A stretch of DNA of 64,000 nt, taken from positions 64,001 to 128,000 of IMG/VR virus record IMGVR_UViG_3300036831_000148; one strand, 5' to 3'. The notes beneath the pieces were generated by a model that was given only the letters and a program-made list of their open reading frames with translations, had not been told where the DNA came from and did not search any database. The position numbers were made by a program, and so were the translations under genes. Shown here one piece after another: positions 46,285-64,000 of this stretch. The stretch comes from a virus. Position 1 is the stretch's first letter; every line of letters starts with the position of its first letter.

Positions 46285-46293
46285 GGTGCTGGC

Positions 46294-46649: not shown

Positions 46650-46661
46650 CGGGGGAGAGGC

Positions 46662-47156: not shown

Positions 47157-47191
47157 CTAGCCCGGGAACCTTCCTGCCGTTCCCGGGCTAG
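47157..47191 (-). terminator. hairpin terminator
   Basis: ctagcccgggaac...gttcccgggctag. Confidence 0.65.
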
Positions 47192-47206
47192 CGCGCGAGG
47201 CCGCGC

Positions 47207-47704: not shown

Positions 47705-47719
47705 CGGGTGCCTGCCTTT

Positions 47720-47890: not shown

Positions 47891-47976
47891 GCCCTCACTG
47901 TACAGATGTACTTGACTAGAGTCAAGGCTAGAGATTATCCTGCAGGTACATCAAACCGGAAGGCAGGCAAGCCAGG

Positions 47977-48366: not shown

Positions 48367-48381
48367 CTCGCGTTTCCGCAC

Positions 48382-48423
48382 GCCTGCTAGCCCGCCAGGT
48401 CTCGACCTGGCGGGCTAGCAGGC
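48382..48423. terminator. bidirectional hairpin
   Basis: gcctgctagcccgccaggtc-tc-gacctggcgggctagcaggc. Confidence 0.7.
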
Positions 48424-48594
48424 GTGCCGCGGCAGCCCTCGCGGGAGAGCTGGCGGCCAGCTGAGGGAGAGTTCCCAGTACGGATCTTCCCGGCCTGGGG
48501 CATCACCGGGCAGGCTCATTACCGCTACCGGCGCTTACGCGCGCTGGCCCCCCTGGAGGCTGCCTCCAGGGGGGCGCAGTGCCGGCGAGGCCGG

Positions 48595-48927
48595 CTAGCT
48601 CGCGTAAACCCACCTGACCACTAGGTCAGAGTCACGGTCCGCCGCGTACGCGTCATCGGCGATCTTCTGGGCGGGGGCGCTGCGGGTGAACAGGTGAAGG
48701 GCCTTGCCCGCCGCGTAGTCGCTGGCCTTAGCCTGCGGGACGTAGCGGAACACGCCGTACAGGCCGGTTTCCGTGTAGAACGTCCCTCCGCAGTAGGCGC
48801 AGCGCTTGCGCTTCGGCCGGCCCTCGCCGCTGGTGTGGCTTCCGCTGACGCTGAGGCTTGACGCGCAGTAGTACCGCGTCGCGCGGCCGGCGGGGACCTT
48901 AGCCGGGCTGGTCTGCTGACTGGTCAT
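48595..48927 (-). CDS. hypothetical protein
   Basis: CAYCG. Confidence 0.6.
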   Translation of the reverse strand: MTSQQTSPAKVPAGRATRYYCASSLSVSGSHTSGEGRPKRKRCAYCGGTFYTETGLYGVFRYVPQAKASDYAAGKALHLFTRSAPAQKIADDAYAADRDSDLVVRWVYAS

Positions 48928-48936
48928 GGGGTGCCC

Positions 48937-49527
48937 TCACATCCTGGTAACGGTGAAGCCGGGGACCATGGTCACGTCCGCCGGCTTGCGGGTGTAGGTA
49001 CCCGGGACGCGGTAAGAGCGGCCGGCGGCGGGCATCTCGCGCAGGCACCCGACAGGCCGCGCGCTGGCCGCGCTGGTGTACAGGTAGAACAGTTCGGCGC
49101 CGGCGCCGCACACGGAACGCGTGACCGCAACGGCCGTGATGTCATGGGCGGGCACGGCCTCGCGCGGCGCGCTGCACTCGGATTCGCTGCAGCCCGCGTG
49201 CGGGTGCCAGTCTCCCGGGCCGGCGCCGCACGGGTCATCGCGCGTGCTGCGGCAGTAGTAGTAGCCGACGCGGGCCTGGGAGCAGTGGTTGGCGCGGACG
49301 CGGTCCCTCTCGGCCTCGCTGCGGTCATTCAGTTCAGTGAAACGGACGCCGGCCTCCGCGCAGCGCTCGCGGTAGGCGTAGGCCTCAGCCTCGCTGAGCA
49401 CGCGCTCAGCCTCGCGGCGGTAAGCGCTGGTCTCCCGCCATGCGGCCCCGTGCCGGTCACGGTCAAGCGCCGCGCGGCCGGCCGCCATCATCTCAGGGTC
49501 AAACTCGGGATAGTAAGCGTCAGTCAC
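48937..49527 (-). CDS. Cys-rich hypothetical protein
   Basis: ORF in the cassette. Confidence 0.6.
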   Translation of the reverse strand: MTDAYYPEFDPEMMAAGRAALDRDRHGAAWRETSAYRREAERVLSEAEAYAYRERCAEAGVRFTELNDRSEAERDRVRANHCSQARVGYYYCRSTRDDPCGAGPGDWHPHAGCSESECSAPREAVPAHDITAVAVTRSVCGAGAELFYLYTSAASARPVGCLREMPAAGRSYRVPGTYTRKPADVTMVPGFTVTRM

Positions 49528-49538
49528 GGCCGGGCCTC

Positions 49539-49754
49539 TCAGAATCCCATGAGCGCGTCAAGTACCGCGCTGTCCAGGGCAGGGGCCTCGATACCGCCGC
49601 GCGCGTAGGCTGCCGCGGCAGCCCGCACGTGCGGGAAGCGGTCCAGCATGTGGGCCGCCATCTGCGCCGTCTCGTCGTAGCCGAATTCGGCAGGGTCCCC
49701 CTTGACGCGGTCTATGGCGTCTGCCGTGTGCGCTAGCTGTATCGAGTCGTACAT
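49539..49754 (-). CDS. hypothetical early protein
   Basis: leader and promoter upstream. Confidence 0.65.
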   Translation of the reverse strand: MYDSIQLAHTADAIDRVKGDPAEFGYDETAQMAAHMLDRFPHVRAAAAAYARGGIEAPALDSAVLDALMGF

Positions 49755-49764
49755 GGTGCCTGCC

Positions 49765-49819
49765 CCTCTCGGTTGCCTGTGGCCCTACTGTACAGGGTCA
49801 GCTTGACTAGAGTCAAGAG
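49765..49819 (-). repeat. 55-bp promoter/leader block identical to 50746-50800, near-identical copy at about 51071-51120
   Basis: cctctcggttgcctgtggccctactgtacagggtcagcttgactagagtcaagag at both sites. Confidence 0.85.
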
Positions 49820-49840
49820 GCTAGGCAGGAGAGGGGACAG

Positions 49841-49880
49841 AAAAACCGGGCGCGTTCATCTTTCATCAAACGCGCCCGGT
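49841..49880 (-). terminator. Rho-independent terminator
   Basis: accgggcgcgtt...aacgcgcccggt followed by TTTTT on the minus strand. Confidence 0.7.
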
Positions 49881-49908
49881 CTCCCGGTATCCAGTTGTCA
49901 CAGCATAG

Positions 49909-50133
49909 CTAGGCAGGGGGCAGGCCGGCCAGGGCCTCGCTCACCTGCCACGCGGGCAAGCGCAGGCCGCCAGCGTCGGCGAGCGCCGTAGCCGTCTCGC
50001 GGTCGGGCGCGTACACGGCCGCCGTGTCAAACAGCCAGCACCGCAGCCCGGCCGCGCCGCCGTAGCCGGGCAGGCAGCCCGGCGCGCGGAAGCGGAACAC
50101 GGCGCGGCCGGGCTCGCGAAAGTCCACGTCCAC
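49909..50133 (-). CDS. hypothetical protein
   Basis: TAGTG coupling. Confidence 0.5.
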   Translation of the reverse strand: MDVDFREPGRAVFRFRAPGCLPGYGGAAGLRCWLFDTAAVYAPDRETATALADAGGLRLPAWQVSEALAGLPPA

Positions 50134-50735
50134 TAGAACCCCAGGGCGGTACCGTAAGCGCGGTCAGCCTCGCTGACCAGGCGTGCCGCGTGGTCAATGG
50201 CGCGGGCAAGGCCCCGCGCCGCTAGCCGCAGGTCGGTACGGACCGTGTAGAAGTCCACCAGCCTGCGCGGGTACTGCTCAGGCTCAGCAGTGAAGGGGAG
50301 GCCGCTGCCGCCGGGAACGTCCATGCCGGCCGCGCGCAGCCGCGCGTAAAAGTTCTTTGACTCGTCATGCGTGCGGGTCACGTAGTGGATTTCGTGCCCC
50401 ATGATGACGTGCCCGGTCGCAATGCGGTCAAGCAGCATGGACACGCCGGCCGGGCAGCCCTCGCCGCGCGCCATCTCCCGCAGCGTCTCGCGGGTCCCGT
50501 AGGGAACGAACTGGGCGGGCTGGTCACTGTGGGGAACCGCCCACTTGCACGCTTCGGTAATGCACTGGTGGCCGGCGCCACGGTGCCCCATGAGGCAAAG
50601 GTGGTAGCCCTCTTCGCACACGTAGACCTCATGGCCGGCGTAGGTGACGCCGGCCAGCTCCCACGGCGCGCCGCACGGGTCAAGCTGGGGGGTGACCGCG
50701 GCGCTGGTCCGCTGGTCAAGGATGATGATCGTCAC
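50133..50735 (-). CDS. hypothetical early protein
   Basis: leader and promoter upstream. Confidence 0.7.
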   Translation of the reverse strand: MTIIILDQRTSAAVTPQLDPCGAPWELAGVTYAGHEVYVCEEGYHLCLMGHRGAGHQCITEACKWAVPHSDQPAQFVPYGTRETLREMARGEGCPAGVSMLLDRIATGHVIMGHEIHYVTRTHDESKNFYARLRAAGMDVPGGSGLPFTAEPEQYPRRLVDFYTVRTDLRLAARGLARAIDHAARLVSEADRAYGTALGF

Positions 50736-50801
50736 TTGCTGCCTGCCTCTCGGTTGCCTGTGGCCCTACTGTACAGGGTCAGCTTGACTAGAGTCAAGAG
50801 A

Positions 50802-51053
50802 CTAGCAGGCGCTCGCGTGCTCGCACCGCGTGCCGCCGTGCCCCAGGTCAGCCGCGTACCAGCGGACCAGCGGCCAGCCCTCCGGGTGTACCAGCACGTC
50901 CGTCCGGTAAGTCGCGAACGAGAAACCCTGCTCGCGCGCGGCGGCATCCAGCCTGTCCGCGTAACCGGGTACCTCGGTGTCCGGAATGGTGAGCTCTGCC
51001 TGCTCTATGGCGCCAGGGCTCTCTGTCGTCCATGCGTACGTCCGGAGTTTCAC
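50802..51053 (-). CDS. hypothetical early protein
   Basis: leader and promoter upstream. Confidence 0.65.
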   Translation of the reverse strand: MKLRTYAWTTESPGAIEQAELTIPDTEVPGYADRLDAAAREQGFSFATYRTDVLVHPEGWPLVRWYAADLGHGGTRCEHASAC

Positions 51054-51171
51054 GGGGTGCCTGCCTCTCGCTCGGTTGCCTGCCCCTACAGTACAGGGTC
51101 AGCTTGACTAGAGTCAAGAGTACAGCGCCGCTCGCGCCGGCGGGGAGGCTAGCGCGAGCGGCGCTGCATTA

Positions 51172-52509
51172 TCACACGCGCGGTACTCCGAGCCTGGCGA
51201 GGTAATCCGGTACGGGAACAGGGTCGCCAGGAACGCCGGCCCGTACCCCGGCGGGAGCCGGGGCAGGATCCGGGGCACTCGGGCGCGCGGTGCCCGGCCT
51301 GACCCCGTAAACCCGGTCTGAGCCGTCAGGGTGGGCGTAGCGGGCTACGTGCACGGCTTCCCGGTCGGGAAGGGCTCGCCAGGTCAGCACCGCGCCGGCG
51401 TCCGCTGCGGCAGCGGCGCGTGCATCCTCGCGCGTGGCGAACTCCCCGGGAAGGTAGATGTTCGCGTCCGGGCAGCGGTCACGGCGTACCAGGCAGAGAA
51501 CCGCGAACGGCCCGGGGTCGCTGTCGGCCGGCGGGGCGGCCGTGCCCGCGGTCAGGGCGAGCACGGGCCGCGAGCGCTGCAGTTCCGCCGTGCCGGCGAG
51601 CTCAGCGGCCGCAATGCGGGCGCTGCGGGCGCTGGCCGAAGCCACGAACTCAGCGTGGGCAGCCACCCCCAGGCCCGTTATGACGTACCGCTGAGGTTCC
51701 GCGCCGCTGCCGTTGGCCTTTTCCTGCAGGATGACCCGTACCCGCTCGTCTTCCGGGCTGAGGTCAACGCGCAGCACCACGCGCAGCGAGTCAAGCACCG
51801 CCGGCGAGCCGGCCACCTTCCCGTCCTTGGTGAAGTGGTGCAAGATCACGAACGCGATGTCAGCGGCTCGCGCGAACTCGGCCAGCTCGACCATGACGCG
51901 CCTGGCCCGCTGCCGGTAGTCAATCGAGTAGCCGTCAGACAGCAGCGCGGACAGCGAGTCAGCTACCACCATGCCGACGCGCGGGGTTCCCTGCTCGTCG
52001 GCCTCGCGGTTCATCATGCTGACAACCTGGGCGATGCGCGGGCAGTCAGCTGGGATGGTGACCAGCCCGCCGTCTAGCCAGCGCGAGAGGTTATGGACGA
52101 GGTGAATAGCGCCGTCCGGGCCTTCGCCAGCCAGCTCAGGCTCTAGGCCGAACTCGGCTACCGCGCGCGCGATGGCGGCGCGCAGCCGCGGCGCCAGGTC
52201 CTCGTAGGCGTCATCCTCGCCAGGGCCGGTGATCCACAGCACGCGGACGGGCTCGCGCCGCTCCTCCTGGTCGTCGCCGGGGAACGGGAGGCCGAGAACC
52301 AGCCGCGCGGCCACGGCCGCCGTGAGGAAGCCCTTGCCCGTGCCGCCTTTCGCGGCGATGACAACGGGTGACCCTACCGGGATGTAGCCGCGCCACCACC
52401 AGCGCCGCTCAATAACCGGGTAGCTCCCGAAACCAGGGGCGACGCGCCCGGATCCGGGAACTGGGCTAGGTGCGGGCTGCACCTCAGCCAGCACGTCAGT
52501 TAGCGACAT
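51172..52509 (-). CDS. AAA_25 / RepA-like P-loop ATPase (helicase-like)
   Basis: WWWRGYIP, IAAKGGTGKG, VVADSL, ILHHFTK, AGS, EKANG; start ATG 52509 after the leader. Confidence 0.75.
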   Translation of the reverse strand: MSLTDVLAEVQPAPSPVPGSGRVAPGFGSYPVIERRWWWRGYIPVGSPVVIAAKGGTGKGFLTAAVAARLVLGLPFPGDDQEERREPVRVLWITGPGEDDAYEDLAPRLRAAIARAVAEFGLEPELAGEGPDGAIHLVHNLSRWLDGGLVTIPADCPRIAQVVSMMNREADEQGTPRVGMVVADSLSALLSDGYSIDYRQRARRVMVELAEFARAADIAFVILHHFTKDGKVAGSPAVLDSLRVVLRVDLSPEDERVRVILQEKANGSGAEPQRYVITGLGVAAHAEFVASASARSARIAAAELAGTAELQRSRPVLALTAGTAAPPADSDPGPFAVLCLVRRDRCPDANIYLPGEFATREDARAAAAADAGAVLTWRALPDREAVHVARYAHPDGSDRVYGVRPGTARPSAPDPAPAPAGVRAGVPGDPVPVPDYLARLGVPRV

Positions 52510-52626
52510 AAGCGCCTGCCTTTCATCGGTTGCTCTACCTGCGATGATATAGCAGGGCTTGACTTGAGTCAAGACAAGCAGCAGCCCGCCAGGCCACCCG
52601 GGGGGCCTGGCGGGCTGGTCAGGGGG

Positions 52627-53094
52627 TTAGCGGGGCTGAGCCTCGCGCATGCGCCAGTAGTCGAATACCACGCGGTCGCGGACGTTCGGGTTAAGCGTGT
52701 GCACCGTGCGAACGCCGTACGCGCCGTCCTGGGTGACCAGCGCCAGCGTGTACTGAGCGTTACTCATGGCCGCGGTCATCAGGACCGGCTGCAGCGCGTA
52801 GAACCCGCCCGGCCCCATCCCGTCGCGCGGGTCACCGCTCAGGAACTCGCCGTGCGACTCGGCGGCGTACCCGTACAGGACCCGCGTCGTACCCCACGTG
52901 CCCGCGTCCGGAAGGTCGTTCTCCAGGGTCAGGCCGCGCTCCGTCATCCAGCGGTCAAGGCCGGCCCGCGTCTCGAACGCGGTGTGGGACATTGACCCGT
53001 TGCTGACTATGAACCAGTAAGGGCCGTGCCGCTCGTGCTGCTCGGCCGTCAGCGAGGTAACTTGCAGCTTGTCAAAAACCTGCCGGTAAACCAT
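52627..53094 (-). CDS. hypothetical early protein
   Basis: leader and promoter upstream. Confidence 0.7.
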   Translation of the reverse strand: MVYRQVFDKLQVTSLTAEQHERHGPYWFIVSNGSMSHTAFETRAGLDRWMTERGLTLENDLPDAGTWGTTRVLYGYAAESHGEFLSGDPRDGMGPGGFYALQPVLMTAAMSNAQYTLALVTQDGAYGVRTVHTLNPNVRDRVVFDYWRMREAQPR

Positions 53095-53161
53095 GGGTGC
53101 CTGCCCTTCGGTTGGTTGCCTGGGGCCAGTTTACCGGCAGATCTTGACTAGAGTCAAGAGA

Positions 53162-53506
53162 TTACCTGGCGGGCCTGGTGAACTCCCCGCAGGTCTGGCA
53201 CCACCCGGCCTGGTACTTGGCGCACAACTCACAGGCCGCGCTGCCGCACCCGTCCGAGCTGTGGTAAACGTGCGAGTCGAACGTCTCGGTTACCGGGTCA
53301 AAGTCGCCGAATGTAGAAGTGCTGAGGATGTTGAAGCACACCGGGCAGGAGGTTTCCGCCATGCGCTGGCAGTCACCGCACCCGGGGAACCGGGCGAAGT
53401 TCTCCGCGCAGTGCATCACGTTGACCGTTGCCGAGTGCCGGCCGTCCGCTGTCGGCTTGTCCGCAGCGCGCGGGAGCCGGTAGGCGTAGCTCCTGGGCCC
53501 GCTCAT
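53162..53506 (-). CDS. Cys-rich hypothetical protein
   Basis: several CxxC; ATGA coupling. Confidence 0.6.
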   Translation of the reverse strand: MSGPRSYAYRLPRAADKPTADGRHSATVNVMHCAENFARFPGCGDCQRMAETSCPVCFNILSTSTFGDFDPVTETFDSHVYHSSDGCGSAACELCAKYQAGWCQTCGEFTRPAR

Positions 53507-53736
53507 GCCCCCGCCGCCTGCCCGGCCGCAACCGCCTCGTAACGCTCGGTATCGTGGTCAAAGGTCAGCAGGTGACCGGGCGCGGCCAGGTCCGGCCCCT
53601 TGGTCATGTGCACCGCGCCGACGTCACGAGCCCAGCTCATGAGCCTGCGCGCGCGGGTGTTGGAGACCAGCGTGCCCGCGGGCGACTGGCCGGAGGTGAG
53701 CCAGCTAAACGCCTGGTCGTGAGTCATCGGGTCCAT
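53503..53736 (-). CDS. hypothetical early protein
   Basis: leader and promoter upstream. Confidence 0.65.
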   Translation of the reverse strand: MDPMTHDQAFSWLTSGQSPAGTLVSNTRARRLMSWARDVGAVHMTKGPDLAAPGHLLTFDHDTERYEAVAAGQAAGA

Positions 53737-53806
53737 GTGCCTGCCCCTCGTTGGTTGCCTGCGCCCATCTTACCGGCAAGGCTTGACTAGAGTCAAGGTA
53801 CAGGCT

Positions 53807-54082
53807 CTAGCGCACCGCCACAGACAGCCGGGGGAGGCCACTAATCCAGTTCTCTAGCGCCTGGTCGCGGCGCCGCTGCTGCGCTGCCGTCAGCCTGGAG
53901 GCCGGGTCGTACCAGATGCCGCGCCCGGCCGTGTAGCGCGTCTCCAGGCTGCTCGCGGCGAGGGTGACGGTACCGTCGTCGTTTACCGCCACGTCGGCCC
54001 ACAGGGGCACGAACCTGCGCCACCACTCAGCGGGGCGCGGGAAGGCGGGCGCGTCGATCTTGCCCTGGTCAATGACGATCAT
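53807..54082 (-). CDS. hypothetical protein
   Basis: ATGA coupling. Confidence 0.55.
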   Translation of the reverse strand: MIVIDQGKIDAPAFPRPAEWWRRFVPLWADVAVNDDGTVTLAASSLETRYTAGRGIWYDPASRLTAAQQRRRDQALENWISGLPRLSVAVR

Positions 54083-54354
54083 GATTCCTCGCTGCCGGTA
54101 AACCGGAAGTCCACGCCGGCGCACAGGCCGGACGCCGCGCTGTTGTCGGCGAAGGTGACGGAGTAGCGGGTCCACGGATTCGAGCCGTGCGACTCGACTC
54201 TGGTCACGACGCCTTTAAGGCCCGCAGGGATCGGGAGAAGGTACCTGGCGTAGTCAGGATCCCCCCAGCCGGGGAAGTCAGCGGACCGGCGGCGGTGCCG
54301 CGCGCCGAGCGCAGACACCGGCCGCCCCTTGTCGCCGTCGTGAACGTTGCTCAC
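54079..54354 (-). CDS. hypothetical SH3-like protein
   Basis: IPAGLKGVVTRV...YSVTF. Confidence 0.55.
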   Translation of the reverse strand: MSNVHDGDKGRPVSALGARHRRRSADFPGWGDPDYARYLLPIPAGLKGVVTRVESHGSNPWTRYSVTFADNSAASGLCAGVDFRFTGSEES

Positions 54355-54833
54355 GCGGTAGCCTCGCCGCGCTCGTGGTCAGGCCAGATCCAGTTATAGC
54401 CGCCGCTGCCGAACTCCGGGCCACCGAACGGCGTGCCGTTGCGGTCAAGCCGGGGAGGCAGGTAGCGGCGCGTGCCGCCCGCCAGGGCGAACAGCCAGCC
54501 GGACATGTCGTACGGGTAGCTGTCCACCACGCCGACGCGCGCGGCTATGGCCGCGGTCAGGTGCGGCTCGGGGCAGTGGCACCCGTTGATGACGTGGCAG
54601 AAACTCGCGTGGCTGCCGGTGATGCTGGCCGCCGCCTGCTCGCGCGAGGTGAAGCCGCTGCCCCACTCGCCGCACAGCAGGCACTCGGCGCAGTACGCCA
54701 TGTCAGGGTGCCTGCTGTGCCAGGTGCGGTAGCGCGCGGTGCGCTGCTCGCGGAGGGCCCTGTCAAACTTCACGAACCCGGGCACGTACGCCAGGCGCAC
54801 GGGCCGGGCCGCGGCGGTCGGGGTGATGGTCAT
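54351..54833 (-). CDS. hypothetical early protein
   Basis: leader GCGAAAGGCAGGCAGCCATG. Confidence 0.7.
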   Translation of the reverse strand: MTITPTAAARPVRLAYVPGFVKFDRALREQRTARYRTWHSRHPDMAYCAECLLCGEWGSGFTSREQAAASITGSHASFCHVINGCHCPEPHLTAAIAARVGVVDSYPYDMSGWLFALAGGTRRYLPPRLDRNGTPFGGPEFGSGGYNWIWPDHERGEATA

Positions 54834-54914
54834 GGCTGCCTGCCTTTCGCGGTCAGGCGGGGGGCCTTACGGCCACCCCGCGTGACTCCACTATAAGGCT
54901 TGTCTTGACTTGAG

Positions 54915-55172
54915 TCAAGATGATGACGACAGCACTTCCCGGCCCGCTCCGGTCAGCTCAAGCGCGTACGGCCCGGCAACAGTCCCCGGGCTCACCAGCC
55001 CGGCCGCGATGGCACGGTCAACCGAACGGTAACCGAACTGCAGGCCGCACTGCAGGCCTGTCTCCGGGTGCGGCGCCACGTGGCGGGCCGGCCCGATCTT
55101 CGCGCACCCCGGGTTAGCCGCCACGTAGGCGAGCACCTCGCGCATCCGGGGGCCGACGCGGGGCGCTCTCAT
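54915..55172 (-). CDS. small winged-helix-like protein
   Basis: VLAYVAANPG...YRSVDRAIAAGLV...LELTGAGREVL. Confidence 0.55.
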   Translation of the reverse strand: MRAPRVGPRMREVLAYVAANPGCAKIGPARHVAPHPETGLQCGLQFGYRSVDRAIAAGLVSPGTVAGPYALELTGAGREVLSSSS

Positions 55173-55672
55173 GACACAGCCTGAAGGGTAGCCGCGAGCT
55201 CGACCCAGCGCAGTTGGTAGCCCGTGCGCCAGTGCCGCGAGCGGCGCCGGGAGATCATGTCATCGCTGGTGGTCAGTTCGCCGGCCACCCAGTCCGCATC
55301 GCACTGCGCGATGCCGGCGGCGGCCTGCTCGGCCTCGGCCTGCGTGCCCGGGGTACGGCGGCCGAGGTTGAACGTAGGCGTGCTGAACGGCGCGAGGGCG
55401 GGCCGGAAGCTGCCGCAGCCGGCGCAGCCGGGCGCGAGGCAGGTACCGCCCTCGCCGTGGTCCACGCCGCGGTGCGCGCACGCGCACAGCATCCGCAGCC
55501 GGATCACCGCGAAGCGGATGCGCCCGAACTCCTCCGGGCGAGCCGGGCGGACGCACCCGCCGAGCAGTTCGGCCAGGTTCTCGTCTGTCGGCTGCTGGCC
55601 GTCGCGCGCGTCCACGATGAACTTAACCCCGTAGCGCTCCCAGCGCCGGGCGAGTGCTTTCTCTGATGCCAC
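55169..55672 (-). CDS. hypothetical early protein
   Basis: leader and promoter upstream. Confidence 0.65.
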   Translation of the reverse strand: MASEKALARRWERYGVKFIVDARDGQQPTDENLAELLGGCVRPARPEEFGRIRFAVIRLRMLCACAHRGVDHGEGGTCLAPGCAGCGSFRPALAPFSTPTFNLGRRTPGTQAEAEQAAAGIAQCDADWVAGELTTSDDMISRRRSRHWRTGYQLRWVELAATLQAVS

Positions 55673-55784
55673 GGTGTCCTGCCTTCCGGTCGGCTGCCTG
55701 TCCCCTGATCATATGCTCTGACTTGACTAGAGTCAAGATAAACGCCAAGGCCCCCGGGGTGACCCCGGGGGCCTTGCGCTGCGG

Positions 55785-55964
55785 CTAGAACGCGTAGGCA
55801 CGCAGGCCCTGGCGGCTGCCACGGCGCTCGCGGCGGGTGTAGCTCACCTTGACCAGGCCGCGCCGTCCGTGGTTCCAGCGGTGCGCCCTGTGGAGCCGGC
55901 TGAACGCCTCTACCTCGGTGGCGGTCTTGCAGGGGCGGTTGTGCATCTTCTCAACATCGTTCAC
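55785..55964 (-). CDS. small basic early protein (59 aa)
   Basis: manual translation MNDVEKMHNRPCKTATEVEAFSR...; leader GCGAAGGGCAGGCAACC. Confidence 0.55.
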   Translation of the reverse strand: MNDVEKMHNRPCKTATEVEAFSRLHRAHRWNHGRRGLVKVSYTRRERRGSRQGLRAYAF

Positions 55965-56034
55965 GGGTTGCCTGCCCTTCGCTGTGGTGTTGTACCTTCA
56001 TCGTAGTGCAGAGCTTGACTGGAGTCAAGACATA

Positions 56035-56068
56035 GGACAGCCCCCGGAAGATCTTCCGGGGGCTGTCC
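56035..56068 (-). terminator. hairpin terminator
   Basis: ggacagcccccggaagatcttccgggggctgtcc. Confidence 0.7.
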
Positions 56069-56078
56069 TGCCGGGGGG

Positions 56079-56486
56079 TCAGAGGCCGGCTACGAGGTAC
56101 TCGGCGAGGTCGGCCAGGGTGACCGGCTCAAGGTTCCGCCGGACGATCCGCCAGTAGCGCCCTTCGTCCCCGCCCAAGTCAGCGGCGTTGACCTTGTCGC
56201 CCTTGTCCGCGAGCACGACCAGGATCTTGCCGGCCATCCTGCCGACCTTGGGGCGGACGAACTCACCGGGGGAGTAGTAGCGGTACGTCTCCGGCGCGGG
56301 CTGGGCCTGCGCGGTGCCCCCGCCAGCCTCGCCGGTGACCGGGAGCACGAACTCCTTGGCCGCCTTCAGTTGCCGCCCGTTCTGCTCCAGGCCGTAAGAG
56401 ACCCTGTTGACCTTGGCCACGGTCCACGTGCCCGGCCATTTGTCGCTGTCCACCCGGACCTTGTCGCCTACCTTGAACTCTTCCAT
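56079..56486 (-). CDS. tandem SH3/KOW-like protein
   Basis: FKVGDKVRV...; YSPGEFVRP... Confidence 0.65.
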   Translation of the reverse strand: MEEFKVGDKVRVDSDKWPGTWTVAKVNRVSYGLEQNGRQLKAAKEFVLPVTGEAGGGTAQAQPAPETYRYYSPGEFVRPKVGRMAGKILVVLADKGDKVNAADLGGDEGRYWRIVRRNLEPVTLADLAEYLVAGL

Positions 56487-56591
56487 CTTCCTGCCTCTCG
56501 CTTGACTGCCTGTAGCCCTACTGTAGTGCAAGGCTTGACTAGAGTCAAGACACGAAACGGGCCACCTGCGCAGGTGGCCCGTTTCTGGCGG

Positions 56592-57170
56592 CTAGCTGGT
56601 GCGCCTGAGCATCTCAGCGGTAAGCGCGTCCTGCATGTGCTGCAGGTCCGCCGTCGCGCGCTCGTTCCCCTGCGCCCCCGCCAGGCGAAGCTGCTGGTCG
56701 GCCAGGTCCTGACGGCGCCGGATCTCGGCCGTGCTCAGCGTCTTGAACAGTTCGGCTGCCTCGCGGCCTGTCTCGCCTGTCCAGTGCTGCCCGCCGACGA
56801 ACGCGGACCCGTCGCGGATGACCTTGAACCGCTCGGTAAGGACGCGCTCCAGTTGCGCGAACCCGCGGGCCACGTCAGTGGCCTTGTGGCCGTGGAACTC
56901 GTTAACCCGGCCGAACACGCCGGGGTCCAGGCGCGTGCCGTCCTCAACCCCGTGCCAGCTCAGCAGGTAGGTGTCCGGCGCGACCAGGCCAGCGTCGAAT
57001 TTCACGGTCAGCTTCAGCCCGTGCGGGCCAGCCAGGTCAACCGACGTGCACCGGGTACCCGGCTCCTCCAGTTTGTGCGAGGCGGTCAGCCCGTACCAGG
57101 TAGCCAGGGCGGCCACCCGGGCGGCCATGGCCGCCCGGTCAGCCTTGCGCCGCGCGCTCAGCTCAGGCAT
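56592..57170 (-). CDS. hypothetical protein
   Basis: coupled ORF. Confidence 0.65.
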   Translation of the reverse strand: MPELSARRKADRAAMAARVAALATWYGLTASHKLEEPGTRCTSVDLAGPHGLKLTVKFDAGLVAPDTYLLSWHGVEDGTRLDPGVFGRVNEFHGHKATDVARGFAQLERVLTERFKVIRDGSAFVGGQHWTGETGREAAELFKTLSTAEIRRRQDLADQQLRLAGAQGNERATADLQHMQDALTAEMLRRTS

Positions 57171-57831
57171 CCCCGTAGCTCCGGGCCGTCACGAGGCCGA
57201 GCAGGTAGGGCCCGGCCGGCTCCTCGACCGGCTCGACCCACTTGCCGGATGCCCCCGGCTCGTAATGCCCCTTCTCCAGCACCTTGACCACCTCGGCCTG
57301 AATGGTGGCAGTCACGTGGCCGGTAGCCGCGCTCCGGCGGAACAGCACCCGGACGGAGCCGAAGCGGTGGCCCTCCGGCAGCCGCTCGCCGGCCAAGTCT
57401 GACAGCCATTCGAGTTCTTCCGCCTTGATGCCGGCGTGCCCGCCGTCAGCCAGGGCGAACATGGCCCACAACTGGCCGTTGTCGTCACGGTCGAACATCG
57501 GGCACCCGGCGACCCGCGCCCGGATGCCGAGGTCCCCGCCGGCCTGGCGGGCCATGAAGTCCGCGAGGTTGGGGATAACCGGCTCGCCGTTGTTGTCCCC
57601 CCTGGCGCGGCGGACGCCGGCGTTGTCCGCCTCGTACGCGCCGGGCTCGTCGGCCGGGAGGTTGTAGGAGGCCAGCAGGGCCGCCACGCGGCTCGCGCGG
57701 ACCGCCCAGTAGCGGTTCGTCGCCCACCACTCGCCCTCGAACTTGTTGACGGCGAGCGGCGCGGGGCCGTGCTTGAGGGAGAACCGGCCGGTAACCATCT
57801 TCCTGGCCGCGGTCGCGGGGTTGGGTGCCAT
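57163..57831 (-). CDS. hypothetical early protein
   Basis: leader and promoter upstream. Confidence 0.7.
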   Translation of the reverse strand: MAPNPATAARKMVTGRFSLKHGPAPLAVNKFEGEWWATNRYWAVRASRVAALLASYNLPADEPGAYEADNAGVRRARGDNNGEPVIPNLADFMARQAGGDLGIRARVAGCPMFDRDDNGQLWAMFALADGGHAGIKAEELEWLSDLAGERLPEGHRFGSVRVLFRRSAATGHVTATIQAEVVKVLEKGHYEPGASGKWVEPVEEPAGPYLLGLVTARSYGDA

Positions 57832-57894
57832 CTGGGTGCCTGCCCTTCGGTTGACTGCTTGCAAGCCCTACTCTAATGCAGAGCTTGACTAGAG

Positions 57895-58146
57895 TCAAGC
57901 GCGAGGGCGGGACGGCTGCATGTTCAGCACCGTGTCCGCCGTCTGGTGACCAGCTGCGCCGAGCAACTGCAGGGACACGTTCAGCACGGCCGCCAGGCAG
58001 GTACGGCAGATGTTGCGGACCCGCATCGACCCGTCCGGGGTGAACAGCGGGACCGGCAGCGAGGGGGCGTCCCCGTCGCCGCACAGCGCGCACGCGGTCT
58101 CCACCAGCGGGAGAACCTGCGTGTCGCCGCCCCTGCTCACGGCCAT
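57895..58146 (-). CDS. small Zn-finger protein
   Basis: CALC...ICRTC. Confidence 0.55.
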   Translation of the reverse strand: MAVSRGGDTQVLPLVETACALCGDGDAPSLPVPLFTPDGSMRVRNICRTCLAAVLNVSLQLLGAAGHQTADTVLNMQPSRPRA

Positions 58147-58448
58147 CCCCCCCAGCTAGTCTCGATGCCGAGCGCCGCAGCGCCCGCCAGCAGGATGTCA
58201 GACCTGGCGCGGCTGCGCGCGGGAAGGTCCAGGTAGGCGAACAGGCGGCCGATCGCCGCCAGCAGGCGCACCAGGCCGGACAAGTGCACCGCGTCGCGCT
58301 CGGGCTGGTCGGACATCACCCAGTCGGCCACGCTGGTACGCGACGCGCGGCGCAGCAGCACGGCGAACGCTATCCGGTCCTCAGTCTGCCGGTAATGCTC
58401 GGGCCGCGCGCGCCGCAGCTCGCCGAGCAGGTCATCGTTGGCTGTCAC
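58137..58448 (-). CDS. hypothetical protein
   Basis: SD AAGGA. Confidence 0.55.
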   Translation of the reverse strand: MTANDDLLGELRRARPEHYRQTEDRIAFAVLLRRASRTSVADWVMSDQPERDAVHLSGLVRLLAAIGRLFAYLDLPARSRARSDILLAGAAALGIETSWGGWP

Positions 58449-58474
58449 GATCCTTGTCTCCCGCTTTGAAACCG

Positions 58475-58511
58475 GTAAAGAGCGGGGGCAGTTACTGCCC
58501 CCGCTCTTTAC
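58475..58511. terminator. perfect 17-bp hairpin
   Basis: gtaaagagcgggggcag-tta-ctgcccccgctctttac. Confidence 0.6.
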
Positions 58512-58549
58512 TACTACGTCCGGCGGTCACCGCACAGGCGCTCCGGCCA

Positions 58550-59629
58550 TCACCCCGCATCATCCTGAGCAGGGACAACCCAGTGGCCGGCGCTGTAGGT
58601 CACGCCAGCCTCCGCCGGGCCGCCGTCGTGCACCCGCTTGACGATGTTCGCCGCGCGCATGCGGCTGTAGCCACGGGCTGCAAGCCATTCCACGGCCTCG
58701 CGCCGGTCAAGCTGGCCGCGCGCGCGGCGGGCCTCGGCCGGGTGACGGCGCGCGTCGCGGTCGGCTTCGGCCTCAGCCTCGGCCGCGACGCGGTGCGCGG
58801 TGGCCAGTTCCTCGGCCAGTCCGGGCGCGCTGACCGCGACGCGCGCCGTCACCCGGCCGTGGAACGTGGTGAGCTCAAGCACCACGGTCAGCGAGGCGTC
58901 CACCGCGACCCAGAGCCTGGGGCCGACCTGACAGCGGTAGACATCGGCTGCGATGCGCTCCGACAAGTCAGGCTCCGTAGCCTCCGGGCCGGCGCCCAGC
59001 GCGTCGCCCAGCGCGGTCAGGGCCTCCGCTACCTTCAGGTCGCCGGCGGCGCGCGGGTACCTGAGAGCAAGGCGCTCGCGCGCCTGCCGGAGGCAGAGCC
59101 GGGCCTGTCCGCTGGCGAGCCCGGCCTCGCGCCGGTCAAGCTCAGCCTGCGCGCAGGCTGTAGCGGACTGCGGCCCGGGGTGCGCGTGCGAGCAGGACCA
59201 GGAGAATTTCTGGCCGCCCGCGAACCGGTACCAGGCGGGCTCGTCGGAGATGATCCCGATGTAACTGCAGTCCCCGGAGGGGGACAGTGCCCATGTCGCG
59301 TGCCCGGTTACCGGGCCCGCCTGCGTCGTGTCCTCGGTCACCGGGTCCGGGGTTACCTCGGTCACCAGGGACGCGGGCCCGGCTGCGCCGGCTACCAGTT
59401 CCTCGCCGGCGCCGAGGAACTGGTAGCCGGTAAAGATCCGGTTCGGGTAACTGTCCAGCCGGATGTACCAGCCGTCAGCGTGCTCCTCAGTGTAGAGAAT
59501 GACGCCAGTGTGCTCCGCTGTCAGCTCGCGCTCGCCTGTCGTGGGCGCGATGTAGCGCCGCACCGTCACCCGGTCCCCGGGGCGGGGCACGTAGGCCCCG
59601 CTCCCGGCCTGCTCCTGCGTACTGGTCAC
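58550..59629 (-). CDS. hypothetical multidomain protein
   Basis: 359 aa, GTGA coupling. Confidence 0.65.
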   Translation of the reverse strand: MTSTQEQAGSGAYVPRPGDRVTVRRYIAPTTGERELTAEHTGVILYTEEHADGWYIRLDSYPNRIFTGYQFLGAGEELVAGAAGPASLVTEVTPDPVTEDTTQAGPVTGHATWALSPSGDCSYIGIISDEPAWYRFAGGQKFSWSCSHAHPGPQSATACAQAELDRREAGLASGQARLCLRQARERLALRYPRAAGDLKVAEALTALGDALGAGPEATEPDLSERIAADVYRCQVGPRLWVAVDASLTVVLELTTFHGRVTARVAVSAPGLAEELATAHRVAAEAEAEADRDARRHPAEARRARGQLDRREAVEWLAARGYSRMRAANIVKRVHDGGPAEAGVTYSAGHWVVPAQDDAG

Positions 59630-59862
59630 CGCTTTGCCTGCACCTTCGCCAGGATGTCCTCGGCCAGCATCTCGGCCGTGGCCAAGTCAAAGGTAATGCG
59701 CTCGTTCGGCCACTTGGTGGCATCGACCACCAGGGTCAGTTCGTTGTCGTAGTCGTTCTCCACGCCGACCTTGAGGCCGGTCTGCCCGTCCTCGCCCAGG
59801 AAGTCCGCCATGTCTGACAGGCGGGTGCCGCCCTCGGTGGTCATGCTCTCGGTTACCCGCAT
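59626..59862 (-). CDS. hypothetical early protein
   Basis: leader and promoter upstream. Confidence 0.65.
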   Translation of the reverse strand: MRVTESMTTEGGTRLSDMADFLGEDGQTGLKVGVENDYDNELTLVVDATKWPNERITFDLATAEMLAEDILAKVQAKR

Positions 59863-59919
59863 CGGGTGCCTGCCCTTCGCTCGGCTGCTTTATACTGCCA
59901 GCGTAGTGTATGGCTTGAC

Positions 59920-60114
59920 TCAAGTCAAGGTAAGAACCGGCCTCTTCCACAGGACTACGTCTACCGGCCAGAGGGCGACGTGGAACCAGCAGAGGTCGTT
60001 GTTGAAGTTGGCGCACCACCAGTACCCGAATGGCCGGTGCCGGTCGATCGAGAACGCGAACTGCCCAACCTCAACCTCAACCGCGAACACCGCCCCCATC
60101 CACTTAAACCTCAT
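59920..60114 (-). CDS. small Trp-rich early protein
   Basis: leader and promoter upstream. Confidence 0.55.
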   Translation of the reverse strand: MRFKWMGAVFAVEVEVGQFAFSIDRHRPFGYWWCANFNNDLCWFHVALWPVDVVLWKRPVLTLT

Positions 60115-60228
60115 GTGCCTGCCCTTCGCTCGGTTGCTGATAGCTCTACTGTAGTGCATGGCTTGACTAGAGTCAAGACATACGGCAGCCCCGCGCCGGG
60201 GAATCGGGCGCGGGGCTGGCTGAGGGGG

Positions 60229-60678
60229 CTAGGCGAACGTGACGGTCATCGTGTAGCGGCCGGCGGCCCGGTCGTAGCGGACCACGCCGGTGATGCCGTG
60301 GAGGGCCTCGAACTCGGCGAACTCGCTGCTCCCGAACTGGGCGAGCACCGCGTTGGACTCCCGGGGGGTCATCCCGACGCGCGGACCCCGCAGGAAGGAG
60401 AGAACGTCAATGCGGGTGAGGTCGGGGAAAGTCTCCTCAGCCGGGGACGGGCGGTTCCAGCCGCCGACGCGCTCCATGAACTCGGCGATGTGCTTGCAGA
60501 TGGTGACAGCGGGGACGCCGTCGACCGTGATCACCCAGCCCTTGCGGTTGATGAAGTCGGGGCATTCGCAGGACGGGAGCGTGACCTGGTAGGCGCGCGC
60601 GCCGTCCCTGGCGCTGCGCACCAGGCCCGCGGTCGGGTAGACGGTCATGTCGTAGGTCTTGGCGGTGCTGGAAGGCAT
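60229..60678 (-). CDS. SWIM zinc-finger protein
   Basis: YQVTLPSCECPDF...CKHI. Confidence 0.75.
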   Translation of the reverse strand: MPSSTAKTYDMTVYPTAGLVRSARDGARAYQVTLPSCECPDFINRKGWVITVDGVPAVTICKHIAEFMERVGGWNRPSPAEETFPDLTRIDVLSFLRGPRVGMTPRESNAVLAQFGSSEFAEFEALHGITGVVRYDRAAGRYTMTVTFA

Positions 60679-60865
60679 GTGCCTGCCTCTCGGTTGGCTG
60701 CTGTACCTCCATTGTAGTGCACTGCTTGACTACAGTCAAGACATCTGCCCAGGGAAAGAACAAGGGACCGGAGCACGGGGGCTACTCCGGTCCCTTGAGG
60801 GGGATGACCAGCCGGCGATCTTGGGGAGGTCACGTCGGCGCTTCACGTCTATTATCACACCGCTG

Positions 60866-61183
60866 TCAAGCGGGCGGCCCCGGGCCAGAGCTCCCGCCGG
60901 GCGGGGCGGACGGCCCGGCGTCATCCCTGACGCGGTGGCGGCCCGCCGGGCGGCCGCTCGCCCGGGGGGGCTCCCCGTGCACCGGCACCTCGTTCACCCG
61001 GACCGCGACCTTCACCGCCTCAGCGGGGTCTACCACGACCACCAGCACGTCGCCGTAGGTGTAGACGTACACCCGGGAGCCGCCCAGCTCCACGTACGGG
61101 TGCGGCTCGCCGTCGGCGGGGTGGAACACCGCTGACCGGGACGCCGTGCGGTCATCCTCGCTGAGCTGCTCTAGAACCGGCAT
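60866..61183 (-). CDS. hypothetical protein
   Basis: ATG 61183 behind a palindrome promoter. Confidence 0.55.
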   Translation of the reverse strand: MPVLEQLSEDDRTASRSAVFHPADGEPHPYVELGGSRVYVYTYGDVLVVVVDPAEAVKVAVRVNEVPVHGEPPRASGRPAGRHRVRDDAGPSAPPGGSSGPGPPA

Positions 61184-61271
61184 GCGCGCGCCCTTCGCTC
61201 TGGGTCTGACGGAACTTGTTCGGACTTGTTGCCGAACACCATAGTGAAGCGTCTTGACGCTAGTCAAGATC

Positions 61272-61734
61272 CTAGTACTGGCCGAAGAGGTAGGTCTCTC
61301 CCCGGACCGTACCGTCCGGCCGCGTGCGGTTCGCGTTGGCGATGATGTGCCCGTGCTCGGCCCACCAGGCGGCCAGCCGCACGTGCTCCTGCACGTCCCA
61401 CGCGCGCATCGAGGCGACAGCCCGCCGGACATCGGCCGGGAGCCGGTCCGGGGCCGGCGGGACCTGCTCGCGCTTCCACTGCCGGATCCGGGCCGCGCCC
61501 ACCACGAGCGGCTCGCCGCGGTGATGAACGATGCTGCGGGAACCGGTGTAGGAGGGCGCGCCGGGGGCAGCGCCGACCCCACTCCACCCGGTCCGCCAGG
61601 TAGGTGCACGGCGCGCCCCTGGCTGCCTGGCAGCGCGGGCACCTGACCTCCCGCGCGTCGGCGCCGGAGACCGGGCCGCTTGCGCGGTCGTATGTCAGCG
61701 GTGGCCCGACCGGGCCGGTCCTGGTCACCCTCAC
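61272..61734 (-). pseudogene. Zn-finger protein with an apparent frameshift near 61580
   Basis: VRCPRCQAARGAPC in one frame; protein-like C-terminus (ARIRQWKREQ...) in another. Confidence 0.4.
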
Positions 61735-62117
61735 CGCGTCTCCAGCCAGCAGGCAGGCCACCAGCTCTCGTAGCCGTCGTCCAGCAGCACGTGCACGCTC
61801 GCGCCGTCGGTGCTGATGAACCAGGGCACCAGGTCGCCGTCCGGCAACCAGCACGCGTGGCGCTCCGGCACGCCCGGCGTGACGATGCCGTGCTGGCCGA
61901 GCCGCCAGTGAACCGGCGTGCCGAGCCACACCGGCGCGCCGGGCGGGAACTTCGCCTCCAGGCCCGGCAGCAGGTCGCGGGTGAACGCGTCATCGATGCC
62001 AAGCTCCGCCGGCAGGGTGACGTGCGCCATCTCCGCGGCGCCGGCCTCGCCGTACCCGCCTGACGTGTGCTCGCGGCCCCCGATCAGGGTGATGACCGCC
62101 CATGTCCCGCCGTTCAT
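61731..62117 (-). CDS. hypothetical protein
   Basis: TGATG coupling. Confidence 0.6.
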   Translation of the reverse strand: MNGGTWAVITLIGGREHTSGGYGEAGAAEMAHVTLPAELGIDDAFTRDLLPGLEAKFPPGAPVWLGTPVHWRLGQHGIVTPGVPERHACWLPDGDLVPWFISTDGASVHVLLDDGYESWWPACWLETR

Positions 62118-62554
62118 CAGGGCTCCTCCGCAGGGATCGGGTCGCAGACCTCGCACGAGCGCGACGGGCACCAGTCCGCAGACCTGGTGCAGTCCAGGCA
62201 GCCGTCCGGGTAGCGCTCGCGGTGCGCGGCCTCGCCTGCGGCCCGCCAGTCATCCCCGGCTGCCAGGTCGGGGCGCGCCTCCGTCCAGAGGGCGTGCGCC
62301 TCTTCCACGTCGGTGCGGAACCAGGTGATCCCGAACATTGCGACATGACTCACCCAGCCGGCCCGCACGCTCTGGTAAGCGGAGTCACTGTGGTCGTACC
62401 CGAGGGACGAGATGTCAGCCGGGTCCACCCCGGCCGAGGTGCACACCGCCGCGCGGAGGTCTGCTACCGAGGTCTCAAAGTTGGCCCGCTCTACCGGGTC
62501 ATCCGGACGGGCGCAGCCGGCGAGCGCGATGAACGTGACGCTGGCCGCGCTCAC
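62117..62554 (-). CDS. hypothetical protein
   Basis: GTGA coupling; C-terminal Cys cluster. Confidence 0.6.
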   Translation of the reverse strand: MSAASVTFIALAGCARPDDPVERANFETSVADLRAAVCTSAGVDPADISSLGYDHSDSAYQSVRAGWVSHVAMFGITWFRTDVEEAHALWTEARPDLAAGDDWRAAGEAAHRERYPDGCLDCTRSADWCPSRSCEVCDPIPAEEP

Positions 62555-62901
62555 TTCGCCGGCTTCCCGTCATCCAGCACGCACGTGGCCTCGTAGTCGT
62601 CCCACCGGCTCAGGAGCTCGGCCACGGGCACGGGGCCGTCCTCAGACTCGCGCTGCACGTAGGCGAAGAACGCCCCGCCGATCTGGGCGAGCGAGGCGGC
62701 CAGCGCGGTCAGCGCCGGCATGACGTCGTACGCGCCGTCCTCACCCTGGCTCAGGTGAGGGGACACCCGCTCCAGGTAAGGCAGCAGGACGTCTGCCGCC
62801 GAGCCGGCGGGCCCTTCGGCCTCGGAGAACTCGATTGCCTGGCGCACCAGCGCCATCGCGGCGAGCAGGGCCTCGTCCTGCGCCGGGTTTTGACCGTTCA
62901 T
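62551..62901 (-). CDS. hypothetical early protein
   Basis: leader and promoter upstream. Confidence 0.7.
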   Translation of the reverse strand: MNGQNPAQDEALLAAMALVRQAIEFSEAEGPAGSAADVLLPYLERVSPHLSQGEDGAYDVMPALTALAASLAQIGGAFFAYVQRESEDGPVPVAELLSRWDDYEATCVLDDGKPAK

Positions 62902-62963
62902 GCTTTGCCTGCCTCTCGGTTGCCTGTGCGCCCAGCCTACCGGCTTCGCTTGACTTGTGTCAA

Positions 62964-63775
62964 GAAAAAGGTGAGGCCCCCCGTGTGCGAAAGGCAGGCA
63001 ACCAATCCACGGGGGGCCTCGCCGCAGAGGGGACGCGCTCCGCGCCGGGCTACTCGGCTAAGTGGGCAGATCTGGCGCGCCGGGAGACGCCTCGCCCGGC
63101 GGGTTCCCCTCGCCGGCGCAGCAGGCCCGAAGGCCTGCCACGATCTTCAGTTGTCCCTGCAGCCCGCCTAAGCGGGGTAAGACGGGCTGCAGAGCCTTGC
63201 GCCCGGGTGCCTGGCCCGGGGAGCCTGTTCAGTTTTCGCAGCGGCCGGGCGCAGGACCAGTCCGGGGCCGGAACCGCCCGGCCGCCACTTCGACCCATCT
63301 GAGGGTGCACCTCGGTAGCCCGGGGTCGCGGCGGGCTACCACTCAGCTAGTCCCCGGGCCAGGTGTTTCGCTGGTCCGTAGCGGTGTCGGCGCGCCGGCC
63401 GTATTTGGTCTCAGCGCCCCTCACGCGTTCGCCAGGTACTTGACCTGGCCCGGGAAGCTAGAGGACAACGGCCATCGGTTTCCAACCCCGGCCCGCGGAG
63501 ACGCCAGGCGGCGAGCCTGACGCGGCGGAAGGCCCTGGCCTAGCAGGGTCCCGCTGCCCTCAAGTCACTGTTCAGTTACCCGCCAGGGGCGGTATCGCTA
63601 GCGAGTCCGGCAAGCCGGGTTCTGCCGCGCTGTACCCCTCCCTGACGGGAGTCTTAGTGAGCGAGGCCCTGGGCGGAGGGGGCTGCGGCCTGCTCTGTGG
63701 CCGGTGTGCTGCCTTTCGGGCGCTCCTGGCCGGTCCCTCTCTTGCCTGCTCGCTGGCCTTCCGGCCTCGCTCACA
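62964..63775 (-). ncRNA. large (~810 nt) structured non-coding RNA, family unknown
   Basis: promoter TTGACA(63810)-18-TAGCCT; no credible ORF; many helices including a C(UUCG)G tetraloop at 63121-63138 in minus sense; 3' hairpin plus U-tract at 63020-62965. Confidence 0.72.
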
Positions 63776-64000
63776 ACTACAGGCTAAAGGCTGGCCTTTA
63801 CTCCTGTCAAGAGAATCAGCGGGGATTCTTCCGGTCCGCCAGCAGCCGCAGCGCGGGCACCGGCCCGGTCACCCTCTCCTGGGTTCCCCGCTCGCGCTGC
63901 CATGCCTGCGCAAGGCCGATGCGGGCGCGCCAGGCGAGCTGGGAGACGGCGGCCGGGCTCAGGCCCCACTCAGTTGCCAGGCTGGTCACCGGGAAGCCCT

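Follow-up and report, generated by a model that had tools for sequence, protein, structure and literature searches.

The T4 endoribonuclease RegB is a protein nuclease that attacks Shine-Dalgarno regions and could switch off early genes as a class. In Staphylococcus aureus, conserved hairpin loops in RNAIII that are rich in C, including in its 3' domain, base-pair with several mRNAs at their ribosome-binding sites and block 30S (PMC2837412). In Cluster K mycobacteriophages, 13-19 non-structural genes have a conserved start-associated sequence (SAS) a few nucleotides ahead of the start codon, often behind a promoter that contains an inverted repeat (extended start-associated sequence, ESAS); K1 phages also contain a single inverted copy of the SAS, and the function of these sequences was still called unknown in 2024 (PMC3203893, PMC11373665). 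Here, we describe a locus from a lineage of high-GC soil actinophages, located near the end of a 64,000-nt stretch of DNA (hereafter the window) that comprises bases 64001-128000 of the 146,268-bp virus record IMGVR_UViG_3300036831_000148 (71% G+C; 97% complete according to CheckV; this phage is designated G000). Sequence comparisons support the presence, on the minus strand, of a large non-coding RNA gene that is served by its own promoter and terminator, the RNA being structured and of no recognised class. On a modest balance of probability, this RNA would act in trans on the early cassette regulon of the phage, as an antisense regulator. The RNA represents a new family, which probably acts in a known way, aimed here at a whole class of leader-sharing genes.

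Functionally, RNAIII appears to be the closest of these systems, without being a relative. Both RNAs are large and multi-hairpin, and the C/U-rich 3' terminal loop of the phage RNA is complementary to 21 ribosome-binding leaders, the regulation of these being predicted only. In contrast to RNAIII, with which it has no sequence or Rfam relationship, the RNA described here is phage-encoded and has no embedded peptide gene, its presumed targets, being cassettes of a single phage, share a near-identical leader, the duplexes predicted (13-18 bp) exceed a loop-loop kiss, and it alone displays an invariant core and a linker word. As with T4 RegB, early genes could be silenced via their Shine-Dalgarno regions, but the proposed agent is an antisense RNA loop. 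The likeness to Cluster K lies in the organization of the regulon: in G000, 21 leaders (GAGAGGCAGGCA) stand behind palindromic TTGACTCTAGTCAA promoters, with a similar picture in three related phages (G001-G003, see below), so that a word before many start codons and an inverted-repeat promoter occur together as in the SAS/ESAS type. However, the word is unrelated to GGGATAGGAGCCC, and the phages are unrelated as well, tblastn searches with two proteins having returned nothing in cultured phages.

The locus had first been singled out by an initial annotation, made from the letters and a list of open reading frames (ORFs), as about 850 bp without a credible ORF, and codon statistics agree with this. 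Some 900 bases between the stop codon of a sigma-factor gene (TGA, 63818-63816; domains Sigma70_r2 and r4) and the ATG (62901) of a gene for a 116-aa protein lack a codon-phase G+C pattern: G+C by codon phase is flat from ~62900 to 63800, with a spread of 0.02-0.15 versus 0.3-0.5 in the surrounding genes, and no sense-strand ORF of at least 30 aa occurs across 63345-63600. The phase is also flat at the loci of two sister phages, and homologues differ by 1-nt indels that break any reading frame. Substitutions display no clear phase bias in three of the four homologue blocks (sigma-gene control, 36/32/66), the fourth (window versus L003) showing a mild imbalance of 24/16/34 with neither an ORF nor a signal in third-position G+C. 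Based on the flat G+C phase, the frame-breaking indels and the substitution phases, a protein-coding reading was ruled out. Minimum free energy (MFE) z-scores against dinucleotide shuffles reached -3.66 for the sense strand and -2.96 for the antisense strand of the region, whereas two coding neighbours of the same length scored 0.04 and -1.54. No RNA run is listed as carrying the sequence, the sole run with a match being a soil DNA metagenome, perhaps the one from which it originates.

The promoter proposed initially, TTGACA-18-TAGCCT (63810-63781), belongs to the early-cassette family (TTGACnnnAGTCAAG, 18-nt spacer, TAnnnT), with ~25 copies on the same strand, an assignment made by consensus match only; the terminator hairpin with its U5 was also recovered. 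The resulting transcription unit is delimited as follows.

63805-63810, minus strand: -35 hexamer TTGACA, 5 nt past the sigma-factor stop codon.
63781-63786, minus strand: -10 hexamer TAGCCT, after an 18-nt spacer; other cassettes have TAGGCT, TACAGT or TAAACT at equal spacing.
62964-63774, minus strand: predicted transcript of ~810 nt, its 5' end inferred from the promoter and its 3' end from the hairpin and U5.
62964-62970, minus strand: U-tract CUUUUUC following the terminal hairpin, with U5 at 62969-62965.

The promoter of the next cassette starts directly past this terminator, and the U-tract is weak or missing in several homologues.

Searches with the sigma-factor protein identified two sister phages of 151-152 kb (L002, phage G001; L003, phage G002), in which the stretch behind the sigma gene is non-coding and comprises blocks 73-97% identical to the window. 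An invariant 17-mer further led to a fourth phage (L009, phage G003), with a non-coding stretch of ~1.4 kb, as well as to the metagenome contigs L067, L045, L047 (= L032), L043, L035, L049, and L076 (= L069, near L065). All four ~150-kb phages have one copy of the RNA, located directly behind the phage sigma-factor gene in three of them; the upstream gene in G003 is not a sigma factor. The downstream genes differ: that of the window encodes the 116-aa protein, those of L002 and L003 encode members of a 137/138-aa family, and L009 has a gene for an RF-1-domain protein there. Homologues can be divided into two clades: clade A, defined by a terminal hairpin with an anti-leader word, comprises the window, L002, L003, L067, L047, and L043, and clade B, with L009, L049, L035, and L076, has the core, the linker words, and the promoter. 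Between the window and L003, 14 predicted pairs stay paired through double changes, and several G-U pairs are conserved, which designates the minus strand as the RNA strand, the orientation that a UUCG loop had initially been taken to support. Together, the non-coding status, the conserved synteny, the single copy per genome, and these compensatory changes uphold the assignment to a structured non-coding RNA gene.

The evidence for an antisense function comes from the 3' end of the RNA and from the leaders of the early genes, relevant features of the former and of the next cassette being given here.

62973-63020, minus strand: terminal hairpin, with a 13-bp G+C-rich stem (63020-63008/62985-62973) and a 22-nt loop (63007-62986).
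63005-62988, minus strand: anti-leader word UUGGUUGCCUGCCUUUCG, in the terminal loop.
63024-63032, minus strand: conserved word rich in C, CCCCUCU here and CUCCCCCUC in relatives, directly preceding the terminal hairpin.
62899-62963, minus strand: next early cassette, with promoter TTGACA (62963-62958), leader CAGGCAACCGAGAGGCAGGCAAAGC and ATG at 62901; one of the 21 predicted targets.

About 25 early cassettes occupy the minus strand of window positions 45000-64000 and of genome positions 104000-137400, each with a promoter standing before a small gene, an 18-nt spacer, TAnnnT, and the leader CAGGCAACC..GAGAGGCAGGCA. The cassette promoter TTGACTCTAGTCAAG is palindromic and reads as a -35 box on both strands, and strong hairpins precede many of the cassettes. 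The loop word is the reverse complement of the cassette leader CAGGCAACC(AA)CCGAGAGGCAGGCAC-ATG. Predicted duplexes between the loop and the 21 leaders of G000 extend over 13-18 bp, with a mean of -28.5 kcal/mol, and cover the Shine-Dalgarno purines along with the spacer as far as the start codon. For comparison, 200 shuffled loops gave -15.6 +/- 2.0 kcal/mol (best -21.3) and random genomic 35-mers -15.8 +/- 3.8 kcal/mol. Since none of the 200 shuffled loops matches the observed mean, the exposed and conserved loop of G000 is complementary to the ribosome-binding sites of its candidate targets beyond chance. A similar result was obtained for G001, while in G002 the best single shuffle (-27.5 kcal/mol) went slightly beyond the observed mean (-26.5 kcal/mol).

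Conservation of the terminal hairpin follows the same lines. Among the six homologues of clade A, stems of 11-16 bp differ in sequence, each being fully paired, and the loop is conserved as CGGUUGCCUGCC(C/U)U. Within the loop, the window has CCUUUCG versus CCCUGCC in the others, and leaders of the window phage are mixed (12 AGGCAGG and 8 GGGCAGG), those of G001 and G002 being nearly all GGG; a U where relatives have C, able to pair with both A and G, fits the mixed leaders. In G000-G002, the terminal hairpin is the only sense-strand hairpin displaying the anti-leader word, whose other matches are mostly antisense strands of the leaders themselves.

Under the antisense reading, the host RNA polymerase would transcribe the RNA from its early-type promoter, and a stable RNA would accumulate. 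Its terminal 22-nt loop would then base-pair along 13-18 nt with the leader (CAGGCAACC...GAGAGGCAGGCA) common to ~21 early mRNAs and would mask both the Shine-Dalgarno sequence and the spacer that leads to the start codon. In this way, one RNA would set, and in all likelihood shut off, translation throughout the early cassette regulon. For the invariant core, protein binding is most likely, as the ancestral function of the family, and the anti-leader hairpin would be an added module.

Several observations weigh against such a mechanism. Clade B has neither the anti-leader hairpin nor a terminator, its non-coding stretch running into the next gene, so that the loop is not the universal function of the family. 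The clade-B phage G003 nevertheless has related leaders, CAGGGCAGGCA, and no anti-leader hairpin was found elsewhere on the sense strand of its genome. The RNA and its predicted targets share a promoter type, the timing logic being inferred, and leader conservation could instead serve a DNA-binding protein. Finally, the difference between U and C in loop versus leaders represents a single evolutionary event, and the covariation counts come from ~10 sequences in a model-fitted alignment.

What all copies have in common is a rod-like core, with the following elements.

63353-63454, minus strand: universal core, consisting in every copy of P1, a 5' strand, P4, and a 3' strand.
63454-63443 with 63364-63353, minus strand: P1, the closing helix of the core.
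63436-63421, minus strand: invariant 5' strand CCUGGCGAACGCGUGA (16 nt), written CCUGGCGAACGCGUGAG across copies.
63387-63371, minus strand: invariant 3' strand ACACCGCUACGGACCAG (17 nt), written CAACACCGCUACGGACCAG across copies.

A covariance model of this core (R1) finds exactly one copy in each of the four phage genomes, as well as the core in all metagenome homologues. In P1, seven pairs have changed on both sides among 10 distinct sequences, a score reached by none of 500 shuffles, and 95% of cells are paired versus 29-44% when the partners are slid. Covariation was also obtained for the stem of the terminal hairpin. P4 varies from a 2-bp stem with a GCGA loop up to ~70 nt, and P2 and P3 are invariant, paired bases included. 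Paired bases that never vary are unusual for a structured RNA and suggest sequence-specific recognition rather than mere helix formation; the core is probably a protein-binding platform. As clade B keeps the core without the loop, the core would carry the common function of the family, and the anti-leader hairpin would be a module of one clade. No conserved trans target of the core strands was found within the four phage genomes.

Resemblances between the core and 16S rRNA were also considered. The core strand UGGCGAACGCGUGAG (63422-63436, minus strand) shares 14 of 15 positions with UGGCGAACGGGUGAG, a stretch of 16S rRNA that is conserved universally (nt ~94-108 in a Streptomyces 16S). Mimicry of 16S by the 5' strand was discarded as chance (blastn-short E 0.1-0.6, with a differing secondary structure at this position of 16S), and so was pairing of the 3' strand with 16S at ~nt 651-666, which 13% of shuffles equal. 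Pairing of the loop and the linker word with 16S was no better than with shuffles.

Among other explanations, binding of the RNA to RNA polymerase or a sigma factor is unlikely, while having the most to recommend it. The RNA would be a put-like or EAR-like cis antiterminator, or a 6S/Ms1-like decoy, with the core as the polymerase-binding element and the loop as secondary. The position of the gene right behind the phage sigma-factor gene in three of the four genomes would fit this proposal, as would the ~20 hairpin-separated cassettes downstream, the clade B RNA that reads into the next genes without a terminator, and the invariant paired bases of the core, suggestive of sequence-specific recognition. 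However, the upstream gene of G003 does not encode a sigma factor, the RNA has no likeness to 6S or any other Rfam model, the core lies at a variable distance of 290-690 nt from the promoter, and each cassette has its own promoter, which makes read-through unnecessary.

A small probability also attaches to the locus being a long cis-acting leader, with the core as a riboswitch-like element that senses a ligand or a protein and controls the downstream genes. This would agree with the location of the core ~100 nt before a start codon in L076, L069, and L065, with the non-coding stretch of L009 and L049, which enters the next gene without promoter or terminator, and with the combination of invariant strands and variable closing and apical helices that is typical of aptamers. 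Yet, clade A has a strong hairpin and a fresh promoter between the RNA and the next gene, the downstream genes differ among homologues, and no expression platform is evident.

An element acting at the DNA level, either a replication origin or an array of protein sites in which the linker words are iterons and the anti-leader word an inverted operator, is very improbable. A repeated 10-nt word is indeed confined to the region, the leader has a direct CAGGCA repeat that might be an operator, and the loop word is an inverted copy of this CAGGCA-repeat leader, ~70 bp from the next leader. Against this, compensatory changes and conserved G-U pairs make sense only in a minus-strand RNA, the anti-leader word is always found in the loop of a covarying hairpin, the region contains no AT-rich stretch, genes on both sides have the same direction, and a promoter and a terminator flank it.

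The initial annotation had left open whether the RNA was a new class or a distant member of GOLLD or ROOL, two known ornate large RNAs, and had listed RNase P and transfer-messenger RNA (tmRNA) as absent. A cmscan of the whole window against Rfam 15 gave no match at gathering score, and with permissive filters (E up to 10, positions 62700-64000) nine matches were obtained, with E from 0.67 to 9.7, all far under gathering scores; none of the nine was GOLLD, ROOL, OLE, raiA, HEARO, an intron, RNase P, tmRNA, 6S, or Y RNA. A tRNA and tmRNA search of the 64-kb window was likewise negative. The first of the two options thus stands, no Rfam 15 model fitting the RNA, and the second finds no support. 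GOLLD and ROOL share with this RNA the 600-800 nt size class, a phage-borne location and many helices, but differ in that neither model matches at the thresholds tried, that adjacent tRNA genes, frequent for GOLLD and ROOL, do not occur here, and that the present RNA belongs to a high-GC actinophage lineage in which the order of its mosaic modules differs between close relatives. Very distant membership in GOLLD, ROOL or another known ornate large RNA, for which only size, phage origin and many hairpins speak, is scarcely credible with none of them among the nine permissive matches and no nearby tRNA genes.

Database searches beyond Rfam define the distribution of the family. Neither blastn with the RNA nor tblastn with the sigma factor and the 145-aa neighbour gave any match in 50,697 cultured phage records, and the 116-aa neighbour had no relatives in IMG/VR. 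IMG/VR scans with a second invariant 16-mer and with a gapped core pattern recovered the same four phages and chance matches in coding DNA. When applied to four actinobacterial and 151 Actinomycetes genomes, model R1 gave a single weak match (E 0.0037 per genome), rejected as a homologue: it sits within the 3' end of a 445-aa ORF and is therefore read as chance. A literature search, together with Rfam, found no large regulatory RNA of actinophages.

A broader proposal, to which we lend distinctly less than even credence, joins the antisense loop and the core. Cassette-bearing actinophages would encode one structured RNA with a leader antisense in a hairpin loop, acting as a translation master switch, and the core would be a new motif that brings in a protein of the host or the phage, for instance a component of the ribosome, RNA polymerase or a nuclease. 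In that case, phages would possess an RNA-based way to retire or tune a whole early gene class, and the same logic would explain the Cluster K start-associated sequences, unexplained since 2011. The design is simple and testable, with ~21 genes sharing one leader and one RNA exposing an antisense loop.

Cluster K genomes offer a parallel that we regard as a lead, not as proof. In Adephagia (JF704105), the transcribed strand carries the single inverted SAS, placed within the 10-nt loop at the apex of a long hairpin (L160:38660-38715; record ~58,660-58,715). This hairpin is located in a 432-nt non-coding gap between genes 92 and 93 that folds with a z-score of -8.15, and late transcription of Adephagia was reported to start between these two genes (PMC3203893, PMC11373665). 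Curiosium, Peanam, Amelie, Ekdilam, and Shandong1 retain this hairpin, their stems having undergone compensatory changes, and the hairpin region has matches in 142 Cluster K records. The exact anti-SAS loop occurs only in K1-type phages, being degenerate in Ekdilam and Shandong1 and absent in ShedlockHolmes; the SAS is kept in all of them. Trans-covariation in Cluster K found no support, the loops of Ekdilam and Shandong1 having changed and their SAS words not. As Cluster K phages are cultured, grow on M. smegmatis and can be engineered by bacteriophage recombineering of electroporated DNA (BRED), with RNA-seq in existence, the anti-SAS hairpin makes the unexplained SAS question directly testable. 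Just upstream of this hairpin (L160:38600-38660 and relatives, alignment A7 columns 1-60), Cluster K phages have retained CACAACUGUGCCCAAAAC and, after it, a covarying hairpin of 17 bp. The ACAACUG word found there resembles the linker word of the RNA described here, which may be a coincidence.

Outside the core and the terminal hairpin, the RNA of the window consists of the following modules and words.

63657-63774, minus strand: 5' domain, closed by a 12-bp helix (MFE), with the leader-like words CAGGCAAGAGAGGGA and CGAAAGGCAG.
63568-63577, minus strand: linker word 1, AACUGAACAG.
63461-63561, minus strand: module C, a long branched hairpin, found in L003 too and absent from L002.
63240-63342, minus strand: module E, with helices 63340-63332/63322-63314 and ~63285-63275/63251-63241, also present in L002 and L003.
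63225-63234, minus strand: linker word 2, AACUGAACAG.
63157-63192, minus strand: 10-bp hairpin CUGCAGCCCG / CGGGCUGCAG (sequence and MFE).
63143-63152, minus strand: linker word 3, AACUGAAGAU.
63121-63138, minus strand: GCAGGCC-UUCG-GGCCUGC hairpin (sequence and MFE).

All helices named in the initial annotation were recovered, namely the 12-bp helix closing the 5' domain (63774-63763/63668-63657), the 9-bp and 11-bp helices of module E, the 10-bp helix (63192-63183/63166-63157) and the UUCG hairpin, as were the three occurrences of AACUGAA, with starts at 63577, 63234, and 63152. In module E, G-C to A-U and C-G to A-U double changes leave both helices intact, pairing in L003 being kept via these two-sided changes. 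For module C, a two-sequence RNAalifold prediction similarly contains double changes with pairing kept and conserved G-U pairs. Over 156 nt, the 5' domain region matches L002 at 84% identity, interrupted by two separate indels of 1 nt. Pairing between the terminal loop and the 5' domain (CGAAAGGCAG with CUGCCUUUCG in the window) is not claimed, as L002 does not keep it.

Homologues are mosaics of such hairpin modules: the 5' domain is common to the window and L002, the long hairpin before the core to the window and L003, and the module after the core to the window, L002, and L003, and other modules are held by L045, L047, and L043. Module borders coincide with (A/U)(A/C)AACUNMANAG, which includes the linker word AACUNMANA. 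This word occurs six times on both strands of the 146-kb genome of G000, three of them within the RNA; in each of the four genomes, both strands of ~150 kb contain 6-8 copies, of which two or three are in the RNA, an enrichment of more than 100-fold in all four. This word has the look of a break point between variants, due to recombination or assembly, and a swap of hairpin modules at a fixed word is unusual for a structured RNA. Contigs L076, L069, and L065 break at nearly one point just 5' of the core, and past the linker word after the core they continue into another gene than L049.

Some of the genes in and around the locus deserve mention. In G002, the 5' domain is replaced by an ORF of 46 aa (L003:4590-4775) that shows strong codon periodicity, has a cassette leader of its own, and is located between the promoter and the remaining non-coding RNA region. 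In the clade-B phage G003, the gene right after the RNA (L009:2171-2932) codes for a protein of 253 aa that combines an RF-1 domain with a GGQ motif (Pfam E 4e-15). A gene for a PadR-family regulator (L001:2981-3370; genome 128430-128819, minus strand) is found immediately upstream of the sigma-factor gene of G000 and belongs to the same promoter-less gene run ending at the promoter of the RNA.

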